Shown: in pieces, positions 1 to 29,223 of the stretch | Layout of the letters: each line of letters opens with the position of its first letter | How positions within the stretch are numbered: the first letter of the stretch is position 1 | DNA from: a virus | Strand: one strand, 5' to 3' | DNA length: 29,223 bases | UHGV virus genome: UHGV-0364466 | Program-made: the position numbers and the translations under genes | The notes under the pieces: generated by a model | Seen by the model: only the letters and a program-made list of their open reading frames with translations | What the model was told of the DNA's origin: nothing | The model's database searches: none

Positions 1-1427
1 ACATTAATACCAGACAATACATGACCTGACGGGCACTGGAAATTCCATGTTTGCCAGTTGTTCACTCCATAATATTGCTGTGAACCAAGTCGAACATCTT
101 TCACATATCTGGAATCAAAATTGCCATAGTTGCCGGGAATAACTTGCGCACCGCAAAGCCAGTTTCCGTTATTATCCATGTACGCCTGACCATCGGTGCC
201 ATTGGCTGTCCTTGAATTATTAATCATGTAGATGCCAAATTGCTTATTTCCCAGACCGCCAATCATAAATTTTCGGTCGGCATGGTCCTGACGGAGCAAG
301 GCCTGGGCGCTATCAGTGTTAACTATATTTTTCCCAAAGATAGCGTTGTTATCGCGCATCTGAATCCACATACCATTACCGCTGTTAATAGCAAAACGGT
401 TTGCAAATATATCCCCTGTAACATCAAGACCATGCCCCATAGTTATGCGACCAGTTCTAAGATTAAGCGTAAAGGGGCGTAGTGGTCCTATATCGCCATT
501 TTCCCCCTCATTTTCTCGGGTAGGGATGATATGAAGGCATTCTTCAGAACGGCGGAAAATGGCACCAAAAGATGAATTAAATATCCTCAGTGCATTGACT
601 GTCGATATTTTTACTTCACTGCTGAAAAGGGCTTTAACAAGAACATACAAAGCATCCCATTTAAGATTCATCAGGTCTTTTGTTGTGGTGCTTTGTTTGC
701 TTCTCCATTTGAAATATTCATTGCCGTTGTCGCCTGTTTCAAACCACATGTATGAATCAGTGTCGCTGTCGGCATCATTTTTAAACCCAATCTTTGCCCA
801 GTCAGTATTTCGAATCCAGGCAAGAATTGAGTCGTTTTCAAAAGTAAGTCCACCGGACAAGGTATCACCTGTCTTTTGAACAGCGTTACCAGCCTTGTTT
901 ACCGTTTCCTGTAAACCGAGGTTTTGGATAAACAGCGGCTTATTGGGAATATCTGCTCCGTTCCGGTCTTTTGCCAGACGGGCATTGGCATTATCCATCG
1001 CAATTTTCACCGCTTTTGCGGTGGCTGCCAGCGTTTCACTGGGGCTGTCAGTGGCACTGGTTAGCTGAACGAGTCCTTTTTTGTTCAGGCTGGCATCATA
1101 GATATCCAGATTTTCACGTGCTGTACGCTGTGCTGATGCCCCGGCAGTTTTAATTTCGCTGAGGTTATTTTTTATCAGCAGCGCGTTCTTGTTCATGATG
1201 GCTTTAATGGACAGTGCAAGCTGGTTTAATTTTGTTTTATCCGGTTGAATACCGGCTTCTTCCAGCGTGTTTAATAACTCCGCCTGCACAATATTAAACC
1301 AGTCCATGCCGGGCCATGTGATAACATTATTCCCGTCACCTTCTGAAAACCAGCGAACGATAGCACTACGCTGGGCGGATACGGGCGGCATGACGGTTAC
1401 GCCGCTGTCGTTATCAATATAAAACAT
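1..1427 (-). CDS. Tail fibre protein (Mu S-like), N-terminal ~475 codons; continues beyond window start
   Basis: Manual minus-strand translation from ATG at 1427..1425 (overlaps gp48 stop) is open to position 1: MFYIDNDSGVTVMPPVSAQRSAIVRWFSEGDGNN...GDTLSGGLTFENDS...; tail-fibre-like composition. Missing from the ORF track because it has no stop inside the window. Confidence 0.8.
   Translation of the reverse strand, partial: MFYIDNDSGVTVMPPVSAQRSAIVRWFSEGDGNNVITWPGMDWFNIVQAELLNTLEEAGIQPDKTKLNQLALSIKAIMNKNALLIKNNLSEIKTAGASAQRTARENLDIYDASLNKKGLVQLTSATDSPSETLAATAKAVKIAMDNANARLAKDRNGADIPNKPLFIQNLGLQETVNKAGNAVQKTGDTLSGGLTFENDSILAWIRNTDWAKIGFKNDADSDTDSYMWFETGDNGNEYFKWRSKQSTTTKDLMNLKWDALYVLVKALFSSEVKISTVNALRIFNSSFGAIFRRSEECLHIIPTRENEGENGDIGPLRPFTLNLRTGRITMGHGLDVTGDIFANRFAINSGNGMWIQMRDNNAIFGKNIVNTDSAQALLRQDHADRKFMIGGLGNKQFGIYMINNSRTANGTDGQAYMDNNGNWLCGAQVIPGNYGNFDSRYVKDVRLGSQQYYGVNNWQTWNFQCPSGHVLSGIN
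906..931. other. gix-type recombination site (Gin/Hin/Cin invertase crossover site) inside the tail-fibre gene
   Basis: Plus strand reads TTCCTGTAAACCGAGGTTTTGGATAA, which matches the Mu gix site as I recall it, with the AAACC-GA-GGTTT dyad core. It encodes LFIQNLGLQE of the fibre protein. Only one copy is in the window. Confidence 0.6.
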
Positions 1428-1969
1428 TAGTTATCTCCGTCATGGTAAACAAATTTATAAATCTGATGCGCGGGTTTATATTTCTCCAGTAAACATTCCA
1501 GCGCACCCGATTCATAAACACGTAACGGCGTCAGAACATTATCCAGCACCGTTGCGTTGCGATAATTTTTAATACCGTAAATATTGACCTGCGTAACCCA
1601 CTGGCCTTCTGTGGAATCCGTCAGCCTGACGGTAAAACCGTACTGCGCAGCCAGCCATTCATAAAAGCGCCGACTCAGATTGCCGGTCATACGCATTTTA
1701 TTCGCGGCAGCCCGCTGGCGTTCTGACAGGGTGCCGTTTTCGCTTGTACAGTCCGGCAACCCCAGAAATGATTCCCACTCCCCCAGATACCAGCGGGATG
1801 TGGAAGGGAAACGCTCCCGCAGCATTTGCCGCGCATCATCCGCCGCAGTGGCAATCACGTCACTGATGGCCTGCGCCAGCGCAGATAATTTGCTGTCGGG
1901 GCTTTTATTCCAGGCAAGCCCTGACGGCAGTAATTGCAGAAAGGCCGTCTGATAGGGTGTTACAGCCAT
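1427..1969 (-). CDS. Tail/baseplate protein, Mu gp48-like (DUF2313, YmfQ-like)
   Basis: 180 aa, MAVTPYQTAFLQLLPSGLAWNKSPDSKL...; recognised family and position between baseplate J and tail fibre. Confidence 0.8.
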   Translation of the reverse strand: MAVTPYQTAFLQLLPSGLAWNKSPDSKLSALAQAISDVIATAADDARQMLRERFPSTSRWYLGEWESFLGLPDCTSENGTLSERQRAAANKMRMTGNLSRRFYEWLAAQYGFTVRLTDSTEGQWVTQVNIYGIKNYRNATVLDNVLTPLRVYESGALECLLEKYKPAHQIYKFVYHDGDN

Positions 1970-6675: not shown

Positions 6676-8748
6676 TTACCAGCCTGTAATGTAGTTATCG
6701 CCCGCGTAAATATTCAGCCCCATACCATCCTCGGTGACACGGGAACTGGCCAGACGTAACCCCTCGCCAAGTTCGACGCGCAGCGAGGCTTCCGCATTCA
6801 CTTTTTGTTCCTGCGGCTCCTTATCCGGGGCCGTCCATTTCTGATACAGGTCGGTTACAAAACCGCCCAGATACTCCCCGGCGACACTGCCCAGCGTGGC
6901 ACCGGCAACCGTACCCAGCGGTCCGGCAAGGCTGCCAACGGCACCGCCGAGCCATGCACCGGCTGTACTGCCAATTGCGCCTGCTTTTTCATGGGTTGAC
7001 GCCTGCTCATCCATCAGGACGGGGGCAAGCTGGAGTGCCCCCATTACCGGGCCACCCAGGCGTGACAACGCACGACCGGCACCTTTCCCCATCCAGCCCA
7101 GCGCCCCGGCACCTTTTGTCACAACCCGACCGATCGCACTGCCTGCAAGTTTGTTTCCGATACCGGAAAACCACCCGCCAACAGCACGCCCGGCATCAGC
7201 CAGCTTTCTGACCGTTCCCGTAACCAGTTGCCCGGCAGCACTGCCTGCAAGCCTGCTCAGAAGACCGGATTTACCGGCTAAAGGTAATGGTGCAGGCCGT
7301 GCCGTTACCGGTACGCCGGGTGGGGGTAATGCCAGTACAGGGCGTGGTGCAGGTAATGCCAGCGGCTGTGGCCCGGACAGCAATAACGGCTGGCGGGGTA
7401 ACAGCGGGGCCATTCTTCCGCCGCTCCGTACGCGACGACCGCCGCCACTCCCGTAGCCACCAAATCCACGGGGCCAGTTGATGACAAACACACGCTGAAT
7501 GCCGATACCCTGCAACAGCGTCTCAGACGTCATGGCATCCGGGACCGGCAGACCTGCCTGCCCACGTTTGCGGTTTCGCATCCAGCGCCACATACGACGC
7601 CCGGTTTTAAACGGATAACTGGCAACCTGCCATGAGGGTTTTGCCACGGCCCAGCCTGCTCTCAGGGCTTTATTGGCAAGCCAGACAGACACCAGAACAG
7701 CAGCCAGTTTTTTCAGGCTGACAATATTCTGGTCAACCCATGCCAGCGCATCTTTACCCGGTTTCAGCCAGCGCCATAACTCCTGCGCCGCGATTTTTAC
7801 CGTTCTGAACGTGGTCAGAAATTTCTGACCAATGTTTTCTGCCAGTGCGTCAAGTTCCCCGGATTTATCCGCCATGTCGTGCCAGTTAAGCACCCGGCGC
7901 ATCTCGTTCTTGATTTCTTCAAAGGGGCCGCTGTTTGCCACCTTCGTGCGAAACTCAAGCAGGTTGCCCTCCATCTGGGCCATCATCCCGTCCCAGGAGT
8001 TCATGGCAGCCGCCTGTGCGCCTTTTGACTGCTCCAGCAGGGTCCGGAATACCGTCAGAATGGATTTCAGGCCCAGCTTGCCTTTTTCACCCAGCTTACG
8101 GATTTTTTTCTCATCCTCACCCGTTGCATCTGCCAGCACCTTGTAAACGTTGATACCGTAGCCGGTCAGCAGGTTGGCGTCCGCCGCCGTGATTTGCTGG
8201 CGGGCAAACATCTGTTTGAACTGTAACGATGCACCCTGTGCAGTGGGTAAATCCCAGCCATGCATCGCGCCCTGATTCTGTAGCATGGTGATGAACTGTT
8301 TTACCTGGGCATCAGTCATGCCAAACGCAGTTGATGTGCGGATCTCCTGCAGAACACCACCCAGCCCCCAGGTGGTTTCTTTTGCGTTCTGCTTCGCCCA
8401 CGCCATCATGGCCTGTGCTCTGGCCTTATCGCCGTGATAGAGCGAGTTCATGGCGATAATCTGCTGCTCACGCTGAGCGGCTGCACCAATAAACAGTTTA
8501 TTGGCGGTGTAACCCACGCCAGCGATACCCAGCGCCCCGGCTGACAGCATTCGGAATGTACGGGTTGACAGTGAACCCATTCTGTCAATGGCACCAGAAA
8601 CGCGCACAACCTCCATACGCAGGGCACGAAGGGAACTTTGCCCGCTACGGGACAGGACGTTTATCTGGTTCGAATACTGGCGGGAACGCCGGGAAAGATT
8701 GCCATTAAGATCAATAATGACAGACGCCTTTAAGCGTTTCCCGGTCAT
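6676..8748 (-). CDS. Tail tape measure protein (Mu gp42)
   Basis: 690 aa; Gly/Ala-rich repeats and a Pro-rich low-complexity segment; sits between chaperone and N; AGGAAA SD 6 nt before the ATG. Confidence 0.85.
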
Positions 8749-19980: not shown

Positions 19981-20035
19981 GGGTGAAAAATCCGGTATAA
20001 ATTTTCAGGCATTAATCAGTAAAAAAGAGGTTTTT

Positions 20036-20230
20036 ATGAAAGAGAAACTGACCATTGATCAAAAAATCGAAATTGCCCGGATAGCCGTGCAAATGTTTGA
20101 ATCCACCCGGGCAAAAGGCGTTTCACTTGAGATCTCCTGTTCAGGAAAAGCATCAGTGGAAGAAAACACATTTAATGCTTTCTACAAAATTGTTGAAAAA
20201 ACCGTTATCGGTGGACCTGAGAATAACTGA
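20036..20230 (+). CDS. Hypothetical small protein (64 aa) on the opposite strand, between terminase genes
   Basis: ATG at 20036 preceded by AAAGAGG SD at 5 nt; MKEKLTIDQKIEIARIAVQMFESTRAKGVSLEISCSGKASVEENTFNAFYKIVEKTVIGGPENN; AT-rich surroundings; GC hairpin (GGCCCG-N7-CGGGCC) 6 nt after the stop. Confidence 0.5.
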   Translation: MKEKLTIDQKIEIARIAVQMFESTRAKGVSLEISCSGKASVEENTFNAFYKIVEKTVIGGPENN

Positions 20231-20402
20231 TCACCTGGCCCGCTGTAGCCGGGCCATCCACCAGTTGCATAACCAGATACAGGGCCTCGGCCATAATTCG
20301 TGGATGGACTTCCGGATCCTCATCAATCTGTTTTTTCACAACGGGCCACAGTGCCATTGCCAGTTCTGTTGAGGTCTTGTATTTAGTTTTTTCATCCGCC
20401 AT
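20205..20402 (-). CDS. Hypothetical small protein (65 aa)
   Basis: GAGGAG SD 6 nt before the second ATG (20402); MADEKTKYKTSTELAMALWPVVKKQIDEDPEVHPRIMAEALYLVMQLVDGPATAGQVISYSQVHR; 3' end overlaps the plus-strand gene by 26 nt. Confidence 0.45.
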   Translation of the reverse strand: MADEKTKYKTSTELAMALWPVVKKQIDEDPEVHPRIMAEALYLVMQLVDGPATAGQVISYSQVHR

Positions 20403-20412
20403 TTTCATCTCC

Positions 20413-20583
20413 TCAGGACAAAGTCCTTAGTTGTTTTATGGTCGTATGCCATGAATTGCCTGAAGCCATAGCCTGAACAAGCACATCCCGAATCTGGTGT
20501 ATCAACCGGACATCAGACAATGTTGCAATCCTGAAGGCTTTTTTATGGGCACTGATTAGCTGTGCTTTGTAATTATTTTTCAT
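20413..20583 (-). CDS. Hypothetical small protein (56 aa)
   Basis: ATG at 20583, 8 nt after the gp27 stop; MKNNYKAQLISAHKKAFRIATLSDVRLIHQIRDVLVQAMASGNSWHTTIKQLRTLS; weak SD. The upstream part of the 121-aa track ORF is out of frame with gp27 and rejected. Confidence 0.4.
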   Translation of the reverse strand: MKNNYKAQLISAHKKAFRIATLSDVRLIHQIRDVLVQAMASGNSWHTTIKQLRTLS

Positions 20584-24706: not shown

Positions 24707-25254
24707 TGTGCCATCCTCCGCGTCTTTCTGGCATGGGCATAAGCCGCCGTCATGGCATCATAGCCGCGCAGTTCACGACCGGACGGACTGACCGGCAATG
24801 GAAGCCCGTGACGGGAAAAGGCTTCACGAATACAGCGGATGTGCCACTGCTTGAGTGTTTCGAGGACTGTCAGCAGCGTGTCGCCATGACACCACGCCAG
24901 TGTGGAAACGCCCTGTCCGCCGTTGCGTTTCGCGGTCAGGCGCTGAACATATTTATCCAGCGCCACATCACCGCCATCGGTAATAAAACCGTCTTCTGCC
25001 ATCTGCTGCCAGACTTTGTACACCTTCTCGCGGGGCGTGACATGTTCCTTAAAGCGGCGACGTGGATGTTTATTCAGCTTCTTAAAGCCGCGTTCTTTCA
25101 TTGCATCGAGCGTCTGTTCCAGTTGCGTAACCGTCAGCTCGCGGCAACTGGTTTTGCCCGTTTTCTGCATCAGAAAGGCGCGGTAAGTGTCATCGTCGAG
25201 TTGTAGCTCCCGACGGGCGACATGGATTAATTTAATAAGCGATGTGCGATTCAT
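24703..25254 (-). CDS. gemA: GemA-like early protein (DUF1018)
   Basis: Start moved to ATG 25254 (MNRTSLIKLIHVARRELQLDDDTYRAFLMQKTGKTS...), GAGGTG SD at 6 nt; 183 aa. Confidence 0.8.
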   Translation of the reverse strand: MNRTSLIKLIHVARRELQLDDDTYRAFLMQKTGKTSCRELTVTQLEQTLDAMKERGFKKLNKHPRRRFKEHVTPREKVYKVWQQMAEDGFITDGGDVALDKYVQRLTAKRNGGQGVSTLAWCHGDTLLTVLETLKQWHIRCIREAFSRHGLPLPVSPSGRELRGYDAMTAAYAHARKTRRMAQ

Positions 25255-25284
25255 TTGCTCACCTCTCATATTAAGGAATGAGAT

Positions 25285-25701
25285 ATGAAAATTGATTATG
25301 ACGAGATAGCCAGAATATTTGATGTTTTTCTGGAGGCCGACACCGCATTCATTCGACTGGAAGATGTCGGCTGGGAGCGTTCTCAGCGGCACAGCGACAG
25401 CCATCAGAAGCTGGTTTTCCATCTTCTGTTGCTGGTTGAAAATGGTTTTATCAGCAACAGATATCTGGAAACAGGCACCGCAAAAAGCATTGGTCTCACC
25501 CCAACAAGCCTCGGATATTCATATTCAGGCACCAGTGTCAGACTTACACAAGATGGTCATGATTTTGCGAAAGCACTACATCAAAAACCCATTCTTGAGC
25601 GCATAAAACAGGACCTTGCCGACGCCCCGATGACGCTCGTAACAGACGTCGGCAAACAGTGGTTAACCTCGTTTCTTAAAAAGAAACTCGGGATTGAATA
25701 G
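25285..25701 (+). CDS. Hypothetical protein (138 aa) encoded antisense to the early operon
   Basis: ATG 25285 with AAGGAA SD at 6 nt; MKIDYDEIARIFDVFLEADTAFIRLEDVGWERSQRHSDSHQKLVFHLLLLVENGFISNRY...; no minus-strand ORF of 60 aa or more covers the interval; AT-richer than the flanks; 30 bp divergent from gemA, 39-nt 3' overlap with the 103-aa gene. Confidence 0.6.
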   Translation: MKIDYDEIARIFDVFLEADTAFIRLEDVGWERSQRHSDSHQKLVFHLLLLVENGFISNRYLETGTAKSIGLTPTSLGYSYSGTSVRLTQDGHDFAKALHQKPILERIKQDLADAPMTLVTDVGKQWLTSFLKKKLGIE

Positions 25702-25974
25702 TTCCCGGTTCATACGTTGCAGCACATCAAGGGCGGCGACAGCCGCCACTTTATCGTTACCATCAGCAATAGTGCGGAGATTTTCAATAATCCAGTGAGG
25801 ACTCAGTGACTCAGCAATAATGCCAAACCGGTACGCCATGACTTCATCAATAGCTTTTTCATGAGACGGCTCATATACAAAATTCACAAAGTCATGCACT
25901 TCTTTTTTCGGCAAACCACCGGCAATCAGCAGGGCGGCAAGCTCTTCTGATTTTGAAAATACACCATTATTCAT
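25663..25974 (-). CDS. Hypothetical protein (103 aa)
   Basis: ATG 25974 with GGTGAG SD, 1 nt after the stop of the zinc-ribbon gene (coupled); MNNGVFSKSEELAALLIAGGLPKKEVHDFVNFVYEPSHEK... Confidence 0.5.
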   Translation of the reverse strand: MNNGVFSKSEELAALLIAGGLPKKEVHDFVNFVYEPSHEKAIDEVMAYRFGIIAESLSPHWIIENLRTIADGNDKVAAVAALDVLQRMNRELFNPEFLFKKRG

Positions 25975-25975
25975 A

Positions 25976-26671
25976 TCACTCACCTTCACAATTCATGCAC
26001 GCCGTGTCATCGCCCATATCGCAGTGGTTGCATTTCTGCCCACCACAATGAGGGCACTCTTTCAGATATTCAGGGTTTTCATTACCGCAGGTCGGGCATT
26101 CCTGTTTCACCGTGGTGAATGTCCCCAGCCACGAATACGAATTTTCACCGACTGTCTTTTTCCCCGTTATTTCTGAATCAGAACTAATACAGTGTTTTTC
26201 AACCCATGCCACACGTGCTGAATTCAGGTGGCATCTGGCCAATTTGCTTTCGTTTCTGTAATGTTTGCTGTCCCGGTTAAATGGCAATTTCTCATTCAGC
26301 CCTGCTGAGATAAAGTCCGCATGTAATTGTTCTAATGCGGCTTCACTGTCTGCACCGGTTGATTCAAAATAATCGTAAGCATTGGCACATAATCCGGCAG
26401 CCCGGGTAAATACATCATCGCCCGTCTCCATTGCCCCATTCTTTAACCATCGGTTGTAGGCTGTATAAAAACTATAAAGTTGCTTTCTGATACAGGTAGT
26501 GGCAGTTCCGCCATTAACTGACGCTGGCGTAACATAGCCAGCTCTGCATAAAGCAGAACGAAGTATATCCAGAACCTGCCAGGCATCTTCTCCTTCAATC
26601 ACGCTACAGTTTTTGTACACCAGGACGTCCCGGCCACAACTTTTATCAATACCCCAGTCTTCAAATTTCAC
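25976..26671 (-). CDS. Hypothetical protein with C-terminal double zinc ribbon (4 x CxxC)
   Basis: Start placed at GTG 26671 (AGGAGG SD at 6 nt), overlapping the upstream stop; C-terminus CPTCGNENPEYLKECPHCGGQKCNHCDMGDDTACMNCEGE; 231 aa. Confidence 0.6.
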   Translation of the reverse strand: MKFEDWGIDKSCGRDVLVYKNCSVIEGEDAWQVLDILRSALCRAGYVTPASVNGGTATTCIRKQLYSFYTAYNRWLKNGAMETGDDVFTRAAGLCANAYDYFESTGADSEAALEQLHADFISAGLNEKLPFNRDSKHYRNESKLARCHLNSARVAWVEKHCISSDSEITGKKTVGENSYSWLGTFTTVKQECPTCGNENPEYLKECPHCGGQKCNHCDMGDDTACMNCEGE

Positions 26672-27200
26672 AACCAGCCTCCTGCACCACACCCGGTGCT
26701 GATGAAAAATCAATGATGAGATAACGCAGTACATGGTCGGTGATATTCCAGGCGCCTGAACTGCAAATAAACCGCCCCAGCCGGATATCGATATAAGCCA
26801 TCACAAAACGGGGCATTCCCTGTTTGCACATCTCGTCATCCACTTCTGCAACGATGTGAACGGACTCACAGGTCAGTACGCCTGTCGCAAACTCTTTTGC
26901 CAGTGCGGGGATGGTATTACCTTCCACCCAGGGTAATGAGCGACGCCAGTTGCACCACACCGCATCATCAACAGCAGGCTGCTCAGTTGCGTTTCGTCTT
27001 ACCGGCGGCGTCTGACGCGGGCGCGGAACGTCATAAAATCCGTTGCATTCGGTGAGCACTCCGGCATCAACCGCATCACGCAGGAAATACACCATTGACG
27101 AGGGCAGCATATTCATTTTTTCAGCCAGAACCCCGCAGGTCAGGCGTCCGTAAGCCCGTAATAATGTGCTGACACCATTCAGAATTTTTGCATCAACCAT
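26661..27200 (-). CDS. Hypothetical protein with winged-helix-like N-terminus (179 aa)
   Basis: ATG 27200 with GAGGAA SD at 6-7 nt; MVDAKILNGVSTLLRAYGRLTCGVLAEKMNMLPSSMVYFLRDAVDAGVLTE...; first gene downstream of gam after a 98-bp structured spacer. Confidence 0.6.
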   Translation of the reverse strand: MVDAKILNGVSTLLRAYGRLTCGVLAEKMNMLPSSMVYFLRDAVDAGVLTECNGFYDVPRPRQTPPVRRNATEQPAVDDAVWCNWRRSLPWVEGNTIPALAKEFATGVLTCESVHIVAEVDDEMCKQGMPRFVMAYIDIRLGRFICSSGAWNITDHVLRYLIIDFSSAPGVVQEAGCEI

Positions 27201-27298
27201 GTTTTATTCCTCAGTAATCTGTTTCAGGCGCGAGCAATCCCCTGACGCATCGCGCCATAATTAAAAGAATGTGAATTAATTAAATATTAATGGTGGTA

Positions 27299-27823
27299 TT
27301 AAATACCGGCTTCCTGTTCAAACGGAATAATGGAAAAATCTTCAATTCCCGATTTAACCGTAATTCCGGCAACACCTGCGACGGCTTTTGGTTCCAGTAA
27401 AATCGCCTCCTTGTTGATTTCCTGCTTCGTGCGAATAAAGCGTTGCAGGCCAAGACGCTCCAGCGTTTCCATCACTGCATCCATACCACGAATACTTACT
27501 GATGGTGGACGGACCCGCCACGATACATCACCGGTGACAAGATTCGCCGTCTTCACTTTGCCGCCGTTCGTCAGTTCGTCGCGGTTCGCTTCACACCATC
27601 CCTGAACGCCTTTTGAAAGGGTTTCAATATCGGTTTTAATCGGTGCAATCCGGGCCGCAAATTTCTCCGTAATTTCCGCGATGGCATCATTCATTTCCGT
27701 TTCCAGACGTGATGCTTCGCGCTGTAAATCCCCGATGCGTTTAATATCGGTAATCACCGCATCGCGGTTTTGTGGCATATAAGCCGCTGCGGCACTCTTG
27801 ATACGTTTTGCTGGTTTAGCCAT
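27299..27823 (-). CDS. gam: Host-nuclease inhibitor Gam (Mu Gam, DNA-end binding)
   Basis: 174 aa, MAKPAKRIKSAAAAY...DIKRIGDLQREASRLETEMNDAIAEITEKFAARIAPIKTDIETLSKGVQGWCEANRDELTNGGKVKTANLVTGDVSWRV...; recognised as essentially Mu Gam from memory; ATG verified. Confidence 0.9.
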   Translation of the reverse strand: MAKPAKRIKSAAAAYMPQNRDAVITDIKRIGDLQREASRLETEMNDAIAEITEKFAARIAPIKTDIETLSKGVQGWCEANRDELTNGGKVKTANLVTGDVSWRVRPPSVSIRGMDAVMETLERLGLQRFIRTKQEINKEAILLEPKAVAGVAGITVKSGIEDFSIIPFEQEAGI

Positions 27824-27842
27824 AAATTAAAGCTCCTGTTAA

Positions 27843-28130
27843 TTAATATCCGCTGTATACAATGCTGGATACAGCCCGATTGCTTAATTCCATCTTTCGG
27901 GCAATGACATGAATATCCAGCCCTTCTTTATAAAGTTCACGACATAAATATTTGTCGTGTTCACTGATTCGGTATACACACAATGATATTCCGTGCCTTC
28001 TGGCATGTGCCCGGAGGGCGGTTGTGGCGACTTTCAGTTTTTCCGCCATTTCTTCAACGGTCATTTTCCCGACGTTGGCTTCGATAAATTCCCGGTCTTC
28101 GCGTGACCAGCGCTTACGATTACACTTCAT
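27843..28130 (-). CDS. Hypothetical small DNA-binding protein with two HTH-like segments
   Basis: Start at ATG 28130 (MKCNRKRWSREDREFIEANVGKMTVEEMAEKLKVATTALRAHARRHG...YLCRELYKEGLDIHVIARKMELSNRAVSSIV); GGTGG SD; alternative ATG at 28142. Confidence 0.55.
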   Translation of the reverse strand: MKCNRKRWSREDREFIEANVGKMTVEEMAEKLKVATTALRAHARRHGISLCVYRISEHDKYLCRELYKEGLDIHVIARKMELSNRAVSSIVYSGY

Positions 28131-28142
28131 GTCAGCCACCAT

Positions 28143-28562
28143 TCAGTACAGCAGAGGCTCGCGCAGTGATGCCGGAATATGCCGCAGCGATAACTGAACC
28201 GCTTTCAGGGCAAGCGAGGAATAACAGCAGCGCGCCCAGCCTTTTGCCATTAACCGGTAATCGCGCCAGATACGCTGCCACATTTCACGGGCCTCAGGGT
28301 CTGATGCGCAGATGTATTCCCGGTCCATGACGTACTCCCATAAATCCACGTTGAACGCACCGCCAAATGCAATGGCGCGGGATATGCTTTCGCCGCAATA
28401 ACGCGCACAAATGCTGTAATGGTCGAAAGCAATCAGGTAAGTCTTTTCACCACAATCATCAACTTTCCGGGCGCAAATAAACTCGCGTAATTCACCACCG
28501 TTGTTATTGCGTTCCTGAATTCGGATTAATGCCTGAATTTCATTTCGGATTTTGACGTTCAT
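28143..28562 (-). CDS. Hypothetical Cys-rich protein (139 aa)
   Basis: ATG 28562 with AAGGAA SD; MNVKIRNEIQALIRIQERNNNGGELREFICARKVDDCGEKTYLIAFDHYSICARYCGE...; stop abuts the next start. Confidence 0.55.
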   Translation of the reverse strand: MNVKIRNEIQALIRIQERNNNGGELREFICARKVDDCGEKTYLIAFDHYSICARYCGESISRAIAFGGAFNVDLWEYVMDREYICASDPEAREMWQRIWRDYRLMAKGWARCCYSSLALKAVQLSLRHIPASLREPLLY

Positions 28563-28582
28563 TGTCAGCGTTCCTTTGCGAA

Positions 28583-28858
28583 TTAATGTCTGGCTGTATT
28601 CGGGTTATAGCTGAATAATTCCCCCTCGGCTTCCAGCCCAAGCTCCCTGGCTGATTTCAACAACTCCTCGGTCGCTTTTTTAATGATTTCAGGAGCCATG
28701 CTCTTGATGATGCCTGCCATTACATCATGTGGCCCGGTCTGGTCCTCAGGTGAGGATTCTTCCAGTCGCACATTCATATTTACGGCAAAACCTCCATTTT
28801 CCTGAAACTCAATATTTCTTGTATTGTTAAATTCAAAGATTACTTTCGCCATTTTCAT
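28583..28858 (-). CDS. Hypothetical protein (about 91 aa)
   Basis: Start at ATG 28858 or 28852 (MKMAKVIFEFNNTRNIEFQENGGFAVNMNVRLEESSPEDQTGPHDVMAGIIKSM...). The track's longer 137-aa version overlaps the upstream gene out of frame, so the N-terminal extension is rejected. AT-rich. Confidence 0.45.
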   Translation of the reverse strand: MKMAKVIFEFNNTRNIEFQENGGFAVNMNVRLEESSPEDQTGPHDVMAGIIKSMAPEIIKKATEELLKSARELGLEAEGELFSYNPNTARH

Positions 28859-28865
28859 TACCTGC

Positions 28866-29078
28866 TTATTGATTAACGGGTGTTGCATTTGTGATTTTGT
28901 TAAGTTCACAAAACACATCTTCTGCGTGATGATGGTTGCCGACATGAACGACCAGCCGGCGACCATCAATAAATTCAAAAGCAATACCGCCCTCAACAGT
29001 CGTTTCCATTACACTGACATTATCAAGGTTGATTAACTTACTGATTCCCAGATTATCGTGAATATTTATCACCATCAT
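28866..29078 (-). CDS. Hypothetical small protein (70 aa), first gene after the B-like gene (kil position)
   Basis: Tandem ATG at 29078/29075; MMVINIHDNLGISKLINLDNVSVMETTVEGGIAFEFIDGRRLVVHVGNHHHAEDVFCELNKITNATPVNQ; AT-rich. Confidence 0.5.
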   Translation of the reverse strand: MMVINIHDNLGISKLINLDNVSVMETTVEGGIAFEFIDGRRLVVHVGNHHHAEDVFCELNKITNATPVNQ

Positions 29079-29085
29079 TTAAATA

Positions 29086-29223
29086 CTATCTCCAGATTAT
29101 CTGACAACCATTAAGACGGGCCGTCCATACAGAACGGGCCACCCCGGACTTATGCTCCATAATCCTGACCGCGTTTTTTACCAGTTCCACCGGTGGGTAA
29201 GTGATTTCAAGAATCGGACGCGC
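29086..29223 (-). CDS. 3' end of an upstream early gene (possibly transposition protein B); 5' part outside window
   Basis: Minus-strand frame open from the window edge to TAG at 29086..29088 (...[45 protein letters not shown]). Assigned to B only by its position about 1.3 kb upstream of gam. Confidence 0.4.

Follow-up and report, generated by a model that had tools for sequence, protein, structure and literature searches.

Four small genes between kil and gam in a Mu/D108-type phage: a probable semi-essential early segment with two candidate exchange slots

Introduction

Four small genes lie between the 3' end of kil and gam in a stretch of viral DNA of 29,223 nucleotides (virus genome UHGV-0364466; the whole stretch is referred to here as the window). 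The question that this locus raises is what these genes are and what they may do. The window comes from a transposable phage of the Mu/D108 type, with ~98% identity to both phages, and its minus strand corresponds to the left-to-right reading direction of Mu.

In Mu, the ORFs of the semi-essential (SE) early region are part of the Pe early transcript. Deletion of the SE region brings the viability of infected cells back, with survival of 100%. Most of the SE early ORFs are called uncharacterised in the literature, and a search for work on Mup06-09 and on the SE region yielded just the papers of Silas et al. and general statements to the same effect. Sequencing of the Mu semi-essential early genes dates back more than 30 years. 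A preliminary description of the window, made from the letters alone, had expected host-killing or host-modulating functions here, largely uncharacterised in mechanism, and agrees in outline with this literature.

Organization and coding status of the cluster

The four minus-strand ORFs are closely packed and span exactly 27843..29078. The lengths first reported for them are confirmed, with 89 or 91 aa for the second gene and 95 or 99 aa for the fourth, depending on the start codon. The features of the locus are as follows.

29086..29223, minus strand: 3' part of kil, encoding the C-terminal 46 residues, 100% identical to Mu/D108 Kil
28866..29078, minus strand: orf70, in slot 6, 70 aa, phrog_3375
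28820..28874, minus strand: conserved junction between slot 6 and slot 7, from the DNA alignment of the window, D108 and Mu
28583..28852, minus strand: D108-type gp7, in slot 7, 89 aa from MAKV, 100% identical to D108 gp7
28583..28858, minus strand: gp7 from its alternative start, 91 aa from MKMAKV
28558..28577, minus strand: conserved junction between slot 7 and gp8, which recurs across loci
28143..28562, minus strand: gp8 (E7), 139 aa, 100% identical to D108 gp8
27843..28130, minus strand: gp9 (E8), 95 aa from Met5, 100% identical to D108 gp9
27843..28142, minus strand: gp9 (E8) from Met1, the first ATG, 99 aa
27299..27823, minus strand: gam (host-nuclease inhibitor), the downstream boundary of the cluster, PF07352 Phage_Mu_Gam, E 4e-42

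The MAKV ATG of gp7 has an SD-like AGG 8 nt upstream and is the start shared by D108 and Mu. A GGTGG lies 5 nt upstream of Met5 of gp9, the residue at which PGAP and a Klebsiella homologue also start, and translation of gp9 is more probably from Met5 (start 28130), giving 95 aa, than from Met1. Intergenic gaps are 7, 13, 20, 12 and 19 nt, with SD-like sequences present. As the preliminary description had noted, the region is AT-richer: its GC content is 45.8% vs 55.4% in the late genes and ranks among the lowest 3% of 1236-bp windows. For the single genes, GC is 39% for orf70, 44% for gp7, 46% for gp9 and 50.5% for gp8.

Low GC, small size and the lack of a Pfam family might suggest that some or all of the ORFs arose by chance in an AT-rich spacer and are not genes. 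The probability of this is negligible. Comparison with relatives shows purifying selection on all four ORFs (dN/dS 0.11-0.52, well under 1), and their length and frame are kept, without stops, across dozens of loci, so the lack of coding conservation that would speak against real genes is not seen. All four match PHROGs over their full length, their spacing and ribosome-binding sites are conserved, and diverged homologues occur in a second phage lineage. The chance-frame explanation is refuted for practical purposes and, as judged from sequence conservation, the four ORFs are real protein genes.

On the gene strand, no promoter or terminator match was found within the cluster, and no Rfam family was found there. 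A common strand, short gaps, own ribosome-binding sites and the absence of an internal promoter or terminator fit membership in the long early (Pe) transcript, on which the four genes would ride together with A, B, kil and gam. Searches of the PDB by sequence and by profile gave no significant match for any of the four proteins. In a PADLOC search, orf70, gp7 and gp8 had no match and gp9 had noise-level matches only.

The cluster as a Mu/D108-type semi-essential early segment

Megablast of positions 27250-29223 matched D108 at 99.5% identity over 89% and Mu at 97.7% over 74%. The gene order kil-slot 6-slot 7-gp8-gp9-gam is common to the window, D108, Mu and 46 IMG/VR loci, and the four positions are equivalent to Mu gp6 (E5), gp7 (E6), gp8 (E7) and gp9 (E8). 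D108 genes 7-9, as well as Mu Mup08/E7 and Mup09/E8, have the same order, spacing and flanking kil and gam as the window. The window Gam is identical to those of Mu and D108 at 173 of 174 residues, i.e., one residue differs.

Though the preliminary description recognised none of the four genes, three of the proteins are 100% identical to D108 gp7, gp8 and gp9 (YP_003335755-57). The sequences of the genes are already known from GenBank, RefSeq and PHROGs. The D108 and Mu reference genes are annotated as 'hypothetical', with gp9 as 'transcriptional regulator, D5-like', and do not differ substantively from those of the window. Identity with characterised Mu early proteins had been named as evidence against the first reading; identity is indeed found for three genes, but the Mu proteins in question are themselves uncharacterised. 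With genes that are already catalogued, two of them in swap slots, the finding is real but ordinary, and its importance as a discovery is small given that three of the four genes are identical to those of D108. Its modest value is that of a map, in which kil is the upstream neighbour, the interval from kil to gp8 is two reassorting slots, and gp8 and gp9 are fixed.

The gene upstream of the cluster had been taken for a B-like gene. It is instead kil: positions 29086..29223 encode residues 29-74 of Mu/D108 Kil, the window terminates inside kil, and B is absent from the window. The cluster had also been placed where Mu carries kil and other semi-essential genes. Its position in the SE early region stands, but kil is not among the four genes; it lies upstream, cut by the end of the window.

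This bears on whether the four genes could be kil-like host killers, with the 70-aa gene replacing kil beside 'B'. The full survival of cells infected by SE-deleted phage is in line with such a role, as is Gnarl2, the Mu allele of slot 7, which is conditionally lethal in some hosts and is included among the listed conditionally lethal accessory genes. In a pO165-type lineage, moreover, an orf70-like gene directly follows B. Against this, kil is present upstream and 100% identical to Mu Kil, B is outside the window, and orf70 does not resemble Kil; in the pO165 lineage, the orf70-like gene is followed by a distinct kil-like gene. Prophages with these genes are also stable in 10-90 complete genomes, though the genes are repressed there. 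Host killing of this kind is therefore unlikely.

The cluster is better described as the putative kil-proximal segment of a Mu/D108-type semi-essential early region. It is probable, with real room for doubt, that this segment comprises two exchange slots followed by a fixed gp8-gp9 pair, that gp9 is a regulator, and that the slot genes are host-modulating.

Two candidate exchange slots after kil

When the DNA of the window, D108 and Mu is aligned, identity resumes sharply at conserved junctions, and the cassette bodies between them are unalignable. The junction between slot 6 and slot 7 holds the final codons and stop of slot 6 (AATCAATAAG), a ribosome-binding site and codons 1 to 11 of slot 7 (ATGGCGAAAGTAATCTTTGAATTTAACAATACA). 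The junction between slot 7 and gp8 (AAAGGAACGCTGACAATGAA) is a ribosome-binding site together with the gp8 start. It is found in nearly all 47 loci with a few substitutions at most, whatever slot-7 allele precedes it.

The contents of the slots were surveyed in 46 related IMG/VR loci. In these, slot 6 is Mu-type, orf70-type or empty, and slot 7 is Mu-type, D108-type or a 40%-identical variant. Every combination of slot-6 and slot-7 alleles was seen among the 46, so recombination among Mu-like prophages reassorts the slots. The lengths of the kil-to-gp8 interval are discrete (313/325, 512/526 and 525/537 nt), and gp8-gp9-gam is fixed across the Mu-lineage loci. The window combines a rare 70-aa allele in slot 6 with the D108 allele in slot 7. 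This pattern shows two independent one-gene slots directly after kil, edged by short junctions of stop, ribosome-binding site and start. The slots hold alternative small genes that are unrelated or barely related, and slot 6 is sometimes empty.

The phage accessory regions described by Silas et al. likewise have variable, unrelated small genes inside conserved flanks, reassorting alleles and low GC. The present locus differs from them in having just two variable slots of one gene each, with gp8 and gp9 conserved within the Mu lineage. The slot genes may be dispensable, strain-specific host-modulating or exclusion factors. The slot proteins are small and acidic without enzymatic motifs, and would most likely bind host proteins. 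As a tentative extension, which we hold at well below an even chance, the positions after kil could be a plug-in site for small host-targeting proteins, with the ORFan-like orf70 and D108-type gp7 as functional alternatives to the zinc-finger gp6 and Gnarl2, respectively. If so, these alleles would be aimed at different host targets or at different types of O-antigen or envelope, and they would decide which wild E. coli strains a lysogen protects or sensitises.

orf70 in slot 6

The slot-6 gene of the window encodes an acidic protein of 70 aa with a single Cys. It matches phrog_3375 (function not assigned) at E 5e-34, and has no Pfam, NCBIfam, PADLOC or PDB match. The family is rare. Its relatives form only 7 clusters in 5.8e9 proteins, all from E. 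coli, and a full phmmer search of 1.84e9 proteins found only 2 representatives. The gene is carried by 10 of 5426 complete E. coli genomes, and close members of the family are confined to E. coli Mu-like prophages. Its dN/dS is 0.27-0.39. A sister family of 73 aa, 36% identical to orf70, is the one that lies directly after B in the second (pO165-type) Mu-like lineage.

Three possible kinships of orf70 were rejected. The occupant of the same slot after kil in Mu and D108 is gp6 (E5), a Cys-rich 'Zn finger' protein of similar length (73-76 aa). The two are nonetheless unrelated, with 12-15% identity and a single Cys in orf70 vs the CxxC pairs of gp6, and orf70 is not a gp6 homologue. Nor is orf70 kil or a Kil homologue: in addition to the lack of similarity and the presence of kil upstream, the jackhmmer families do not overlap. 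A relationship to the gp7 families is rejected as well (hhalign probability at most 11%). Mu gp6 was part of the library of Silas et al. (UDP0137, 200-gene screen) and is unnamed among the hits in the text of that study.

D108-type gp7 and Gnarl2

The gene in slot 7, read from MAKV, is 100% identical to D108 gp7 and ~20% identical to Mu gp7. It matches phrog_2230 (E 5e-40), its dN/dS is 0.11-0.52, and variants range down to 40% identity. A match of gp7 to RraB is weak and below the cut-off (E 0.0097). The AF2 model of gp7, built with 19 homologues, is weak (pLDDT 61.4) and has a beta-hairpin and a long helix.

Mu gp7/E6 (NP_050611.1) is Gnarl2 (Silas et al., Nat Commun 2025, PMC12373910). Gnarl2 shifts O-antigen bands and makes wild E. 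coli sensitive to T5, and it has been proposed to alter O-antigen through host-protein binding. Comparison with the Mu region, which the preliminary description had recommended, thus leads to a Mu gene that is now characterised, but the window holds a different allele at that position. The D108-type gp7 string is not found in the supplements of Silas et al., and this allele is outside the screened library.

The window gp7 could still be a highly diverged true relative of Gnarl2 that alters O-antigen, perhaps with another serotype specificity. Both are small stand-alone proteins without enzyme motifs, occupy the same slot between the same junctions and belong to the same length class of 40-90 aa (89 vs 87 aa). 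They have the first 13 residues in common, with an N-terminus of MAKVI.E..NT, and share a C-terminal His. A global hhalign alignment with a wider profile covers 87 columns at a probability of 61%, and two small genes that lie in tandem in the pO165 lineage also keep an N-terminal MSKV..IFE[FY] in their proteins. Other comparisons argue against kinship. Local profile-profile alignment by hhalign reaches residues 1-13 only (probability 25-41%), and iterated jackhmmer searches leave the gp7 and Gnarl2 families unmerged. The common N-terminus overlaps the conserved DNA junction and may mark a recombination boundary only, and a BFVD fold search with the weak gp7 model gave no match at E <= 0.001 and no Mu gp7. 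Overall identity is ~20%, with no demonstrable homology past the N-terminus, so the analogy to Gnarl2 rests on position and size only. On balance, true membership in the Gnarl2 family is rather doubtful, and gp7 is better treated as a candidate host-modulating occupant of slot 7.

gp8 (E7)

The third gene is 100% identical to D108 gp8 and 95.7% identical to Mu gp8, and matches phrog_3690. Homologues with at least 71% identity are found only in enterobacterial Mu-like prophages, and there is in addition a branch at ~29% identity in the pO165-type lineage. A seeming 45%-identical relative (P0031) is a copy with a frameshift rather than a distant homologue. The dN/dS of gp8 is 0.13-0.21, and gp8-gp9 is carried by 90 of 5426 complete E. 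coli genomes, vs 10 of 5426 for orf70. Mu gp8 (UDP0119 in the library of Silas et al.) is unnamed among the hits in the text. The AF2 model of gp8, built with 12 homologues, is unusable (pLDDT 44.8).

The Cys-rich character given to the 139-aa protein in the preliminary description holds, as gp8 has 7 Cys and a CARYC at residues 52-56; the 'CxxxC' and 'CARYC' that were listed there as separate motifs are one and the same. Among close homologues, only C52 and C56 are invariant. The ~29%-identical branch keeps no Cys, and FDHYSICARYC is aligned there to LDVYQLYADLQ. A role for gp8 as a metal-binding or redox protein with Cys ligands fails, since no Cys/His ligand set is conserved across the distant branch. 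The gene is fixed in the lineage, and gp8 appears to be a small soluble protein whose cysteines are probably not a conserved metal site.

gp9 (E8)

The gene next to gam encodes a basic protein (pI 9.3) with 100% identity to D108 gp9 and 99% to Mu gp9. It matches phrog_323, 'transcriptional regulator, D5-like' (E 6.9e-29), and has a dN/dS of 0.19-0.32. A label of 'COG1209 dTDP-glucose pyrophosphorylase' that this protein carries in LR595867.1 is without Pfam support.

Two HTH-like segments had been noticed in this gene, and they are borne out by matches in both halves of the protein (MTVEEMAEKLKVATTAL and LDIHVIARKMELSNRAV), at residues 9-53 and 69-95, which are weak and below threshold. The best Pfam score of the window gp9 is ~20 bits, under the gathering scores of 24-29. 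Members of its family match HTH_11 (E 7.6e-9), HTH_23 (E 2e-7) and Sigma70_r4_2 (E 7e-6), and the gp9 profile weakly matches the gamma-delta resolvase HTH and Cbp1. Similarity between the two halves is not significant, and shuffling gave no support for an internal repeat (p ~0.3). The C-terminal HTH of gamma-delta resolvase and Hin, sigma-70 region 4 and Sulfolobus Cbp1 (2LVS) have an HTH signature like that of the gp9 halves, again as weak profile matches. Unlike these tandem-HTH binders, gp9 has no catalytic or sigma core domain, and its own matches are below curated thresholds. The sequence is consistent with DNA binding by a pair of three-helix HTH units, and gp9 may be an early regulator or a DNA-architecture factor.

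A small HTH protein beside gp8 could also belong to a toxin-antitoxin-like pair, or to a pair of effector and regulator, in which gp9 represses or neutralises gp8. In all Mu-lineage loci the two genes are neighbours, the stop codon of gp8 is directly followed by the first ATG of gp9 (TGAATG), and gp9 weakly matches HigA-type and other small HTH regulators. Co-occurrence is not obligate, however: gp9 homologues are found without gp8 in a Klebsiella Mu-like phage and in two further loci, and gp8-like genes of the pO165 lineage have no adjoining gp9, the gp9-like domain there being part of a 183-aa protein beyond gam. PADLOC also gives nothing above noise. Such a pair is improbable, and the reading of gp9 as a putative early DNA-binding protein is preferred.

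Of the four genes, gp9 has been retained most widely. In more distant Mu-like phages a homologue lies directly after kil, as in Klebsiella phage Kp4866-3 and in loci L098 and L133, and in a P2-like Vibrio phage a gp9-homologous domain precedes replication gene A.

Gene content and assignment

The cluster at 27843..29078 is the first segment of the semi-essential early (SE) region of phage Mu, composed of two reassorting accessory slots and two fixed genes. Across its first 25 kb, the window has 97.7-98.4% identity to D108, Mu, and PhiR68_1 with 96% coverage. Positions 27250-29223 are 99.5% identical to Escherichia phage D108 over 89% of their length and 97.7% identical to phage Mu over 74%, each in two pieces. 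Judged by these identities, the window is a Muvirus genome or prophage. Its minus strand is the conventional left-to-right direction of Mu.

A preliminary description placed four minus-strand ORFs here, and the ORF listing and direct reading return exactly the same coordinates, given here below the adjoining end of kil:

29086..29223, to the window end: last 46 residues of Kil, translation 100% identical to Mu and D108
28866..29078, minus strand: orf70, 70 aa
28583..28852, minus strand: gp7, 89 aa (91 aa from an upstream ATG)
28143..28562, minus strand: gp8, 139 aa
27843..28142, minus strand: gp9, 99 aa (95 aa from Met5)

The observation as a whole is real, but a cysteine motif was over-read and a neighbor misassigned. 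Because 29086..29223 translates to the Kil C-terminus, the upstream "B-like" gene is kil; the window does not reach B. Gene order in the D108 and Mu records is B, kil, gp6 (E5), gp7 (E6), gp8 (E7), gp9 (E8), gam. Gp8 is 100% identical to D108 gp8 and 95.7% to Mu gp8, and the 99-aa form of gp9 is 100% and 99% identical to its counterparts. The 89-aa gp7 is 100% identical to D108 gp7 and only ~20% to Mu gp7. At 12-15% identity, orf70 is unrelated to Mu/D108 gp6. The features of the cluster are already known sequences, namely D108/Mu genes and one PHROG family.

All four ORFs are genuine protein-coding genes. Each has a full-length PHROG match (orf70, phrog_3375; gp7, phrog_2230; gp8, phrog_3690; gp9, phrog_323). 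Compared with IMG/VR relatives, length and frame are kept with zero stops, and Nei-Gojobori dN/dS values are 0.27-0.39 for orf70, 0.11-0.52 for gp7, 0.13-0.21 for gp8, and 0.19-0.32 for gp9, with one frameshifted gp9 copy left out. From kil to gam, the genes are separated in turn by 7, 13, 20, 12, and 19 nt, with SD-like sequences ahead of the starts. D108 and Mu both begin gp7 at MAKV, which makes this the favored start in the window as well. For gp9, Met5 (the 95-aa form) is preferred because GGTGG is located 5 nt upstream, relatives replace the first ATG with GTG, PGAP annotates 95 aa, and a Klebsiella homologue starts at the equivalent position.

The cluster had been called AT-richer than the structural genes, and its GC content is indeed 45.8% versus 55.4% in the late genes, placing the cluster in the bottom 3% of windows of equal size. 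By gene, GC content is lowest in orf70 (39%) and gp7 (44%), against 50.5% in gp8. Other AT-rich stretches occur at 1..1500 (the tail-fiber end) and 20001..20500 (between late-gene blocks), with 43-46% GC against a background of ~55%.

Exchangeable slots after kil

In a DNA alignment of the window, D108, and Mu, identity runs through the kil stop and is then lost, with orf70 unalignable to Mu/D108 gp6. Identity restarts at AATCAATAAG and covers the ribosome-binding site plus the opening 11 codons of gp7. In the body of this gene, Mu departs from the window and D108; all three converge again at AAAGGAACGCTGACAATGAA, where gp8 has its ribosome-binding site and start.

Alleles were surveyed in 46 IMG/VR loci retrieved by gp8, most of which also contain kil. 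The first position after kil (slot 6) is Mu-type (two subtypes, ~100% and ~78%), orf70-type (L011, L018, L024, L025, and L031), or vacant, leaving a 33-nt spacer. The next position (slot 7) holds a Mu-type gene, a D108-type gene, or a D108-like variant at 40% identity. Every combination of the two slots is seen across the 46 loci, and the distance from kil to gp8 falls into discrete length classes (313/325, 512/526, and 525/537 nt). Gp8, gp9, and gam are found in all loci that extend to them. Among complete E. coli genomes, gp8-gp9 occur in 90 of 5426, orf70 in 10 of 5426, and near-identical D108-type gp7 in 13.

The slot 6 gene, orf70, has zero matches in Pfam, NCBIfam, PADLOC, and PDB, and was absent from the sequenced phage records searched. 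An indexed search of 5.8 billion proteins returned 7 clusters, every one from E. coli at ≥74% identity, and exhaustive phmmer against 1.84 billion representatives found 2 members of the same family. Sequence comparison rejected any relation to the Kil, gp6, or gp7 families. Using tblastn, a 73-aa sister family at 36% identity was found in a Mu-like prophage that occupies plasmid pO165 (AP026747.1) and also an Stx1 phage. An HMM of the family detects the gene in ~40 loci of this pO165 lineage, invariably immediately after B. The NHHH histidine run of orf70 is not kept in the sister family.

Slot 7 and Gnarl2

Mu E6/Mup07 (NP_050611.1) is a small protein named Gnarl2 by Silas et al. When expressed, it shifts the O-antigen bands of ECOR1 and ECOR22 and increases T5 plating 10^5-10^6-fold (PMC12373910). 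The gene also belongs to their conditionally lethal set. Slot 7 of the window holds the D108 allele, not gnarl2. Local hhalign of D108-type and Mu gp7 matches residues 1-13 only, with a probability of 25% for single sequences and 41% for profiles, and the two families stay separate by jackhmmer (3031 ORFs, 134 loci). With a wider D108-type profile, global alignment reaches 61% probability across 87 columns. Taken together, these comparisons make homology of D108-type gp7 to Gnarl2 possible, yet unproven. The common N-terminus falls on the conserved DNA junction, yet two small genes arranged in tandem in the pO165 lineage also keep a similar MSKV..IFE[FY] start in their protein sequences. The AF2 model of gp7 (pLDDT 61.4) is a beta-hairpin and a long helix, with no significant match in BFVD.

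According to the literature, the Mu SE region belongs to the long early (Pe) transcript and its ORFs are largely uncharacterized; infected hosts regain viability when the region is deleted. The earlier interpretation, of genes at the position of the Mu semi-essential early genes with expected host-killing or host-modulating functions, is broadly right, yet generic. By analogy to Gnarl2 and to accessory regions generally, the slot genes may encode small host-protein binders with strain-specific effects. The D108-type gp7 sequence is absent from the published Silas et al. library. The window has alleles outside the published screen at the slot that yielded Gnarl2, and this is the single lead worthy of experiment.

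Gp8 and gp9

Gp8 homologues (≥71% identity) occur exclusively in Mu-like prophages of enterobacteria, and the pO165 lineage has a 139-aa branch at ~29% that alternates with a kil-like gene. The close family keeps just two of the 7 cysteines without exception, C52 and C56 of the CARYC motif, and none is conserved in the ~29% branch. The "Cys-rich" character therefore does not reflect a conserved metal or redox site. The AF2 model has a pLDDT of 44.8, and a profile search of PDB returned nothing. Mu gp8 and gp6 were both in the Silas library, as UDP0119 and UDP0137 respectively, the latter with the note "Zn finger" (PMC12373910); the text does not name either one as a hit.

A 45%-identity gp8 relative (P0031) was rejected as a distant homologue, as the copy is frameshifted. 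Gp9 is likewise frameshifted in L032 (3421-3717, residues 14-33 out of frame), so these genes decay in at least some resident prophages.

Gp9 matches PHROG 323, "transcriptional regulator, D5-like" (E 7e-29). The two helix-turn-helix (HTH)-like segments proposed for this gam-proximal gene have matches in both halves, but all are sub-threshold: residues 9-53 to HTH_Tnp_1, RWP-RK, and Sigma70_r4_2, and residues 69-95 to GerE, HTH_23, HTH_40, and BcepMu gp16. Homologues score E 8e-9 to 7e-6 against HTH_11, HTH_23, and Sigma70_r4_2, and the family profile gives weak matches to the gamma-delta resolvase HTH, Cbp1, and KorA. The halves align at classic HTH positions with a score that is not significant. 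Gp9 has the widest distribution of the four genes. In Klebsiella Mu-like phage Kp4866-3, a 48%-identity homologue lies immediately after kil and gp6-gp8 are absent; L098 and L133 have the same placement. A P2-like Vibrio phage encodes a 34%-identity homologue with a third HTH-like unit, upstream of replication gene A. We infer a role for gp9 as an early regulator that binds DNA.

The Kp4866-3 locus (OK490420.1, 4450-4979) is unannotated and encodes a kil homologue, the 95-aa gp9 homologue, and a 206-aa protein at the expected place of gam. In Escherichia virus Mu_3F6 (LR595867.1, 5591-5887), the gp9 orthologue is labeled "COG1209: dTDP-glucose pyrophosphorylase". This function was ruled out for a 99-aa HTH protein with no nucleotidyl-transferase match in Pfam, and the label is probably an annotation artifact.

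Neighboring region and a second Mu-like lineage

Between gam and gemA (25000..27300), any sequenced phage covers just 46-56% by megablast, so this stretch is more mosaic than the cluster region. Two of its genes are:

25976..26734: 252-aa protein (phrog_6418) whose C-terminus is a Cys-rich tail, CPTCGNENPEYLKECPHCGGQKCNHCDMGDDTACMNCEGE
25285..25701, plus strand: 138-aa ORF, full-length phrog_585 match (unknown function, E 3e-31), without a Pfam family

The 138-aa ORF is flanked by gemA and a 108-aa gene (phrog_1988), lies on the strand opposite to every neighboring early gene, and looks like a gene inserted in reverse orientation. Mu gp15 (NP_050619.1; NC_000929.1 7896..8162) is listed on the reverse strand in the Silas library table (UDP0085, "at 8162..7896"; PMC12373910), so a reverse-oriented early-region gene is not unique to the window.

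The pO165-type loci (L053, AP026747.1 1566-5021; L052; L054-L094) form a second enterobacterial Mu-like lineage, with Gam 57% identical. Their B-gam interval is reshuffled: B is followed by the 73-aa orf70-like gene, a kil-like (84 aa) or gp8-like (139 aa) gene, a 93-aa gene, the tandem MSKV..IFE[FY] genes (90 and 97 aa), and gam. Beyond gam is a 183-aa protein containing a gp9-like domain. One copy resides on an IncFIA conjugative plasmid and another within an Stx1-converting phage.
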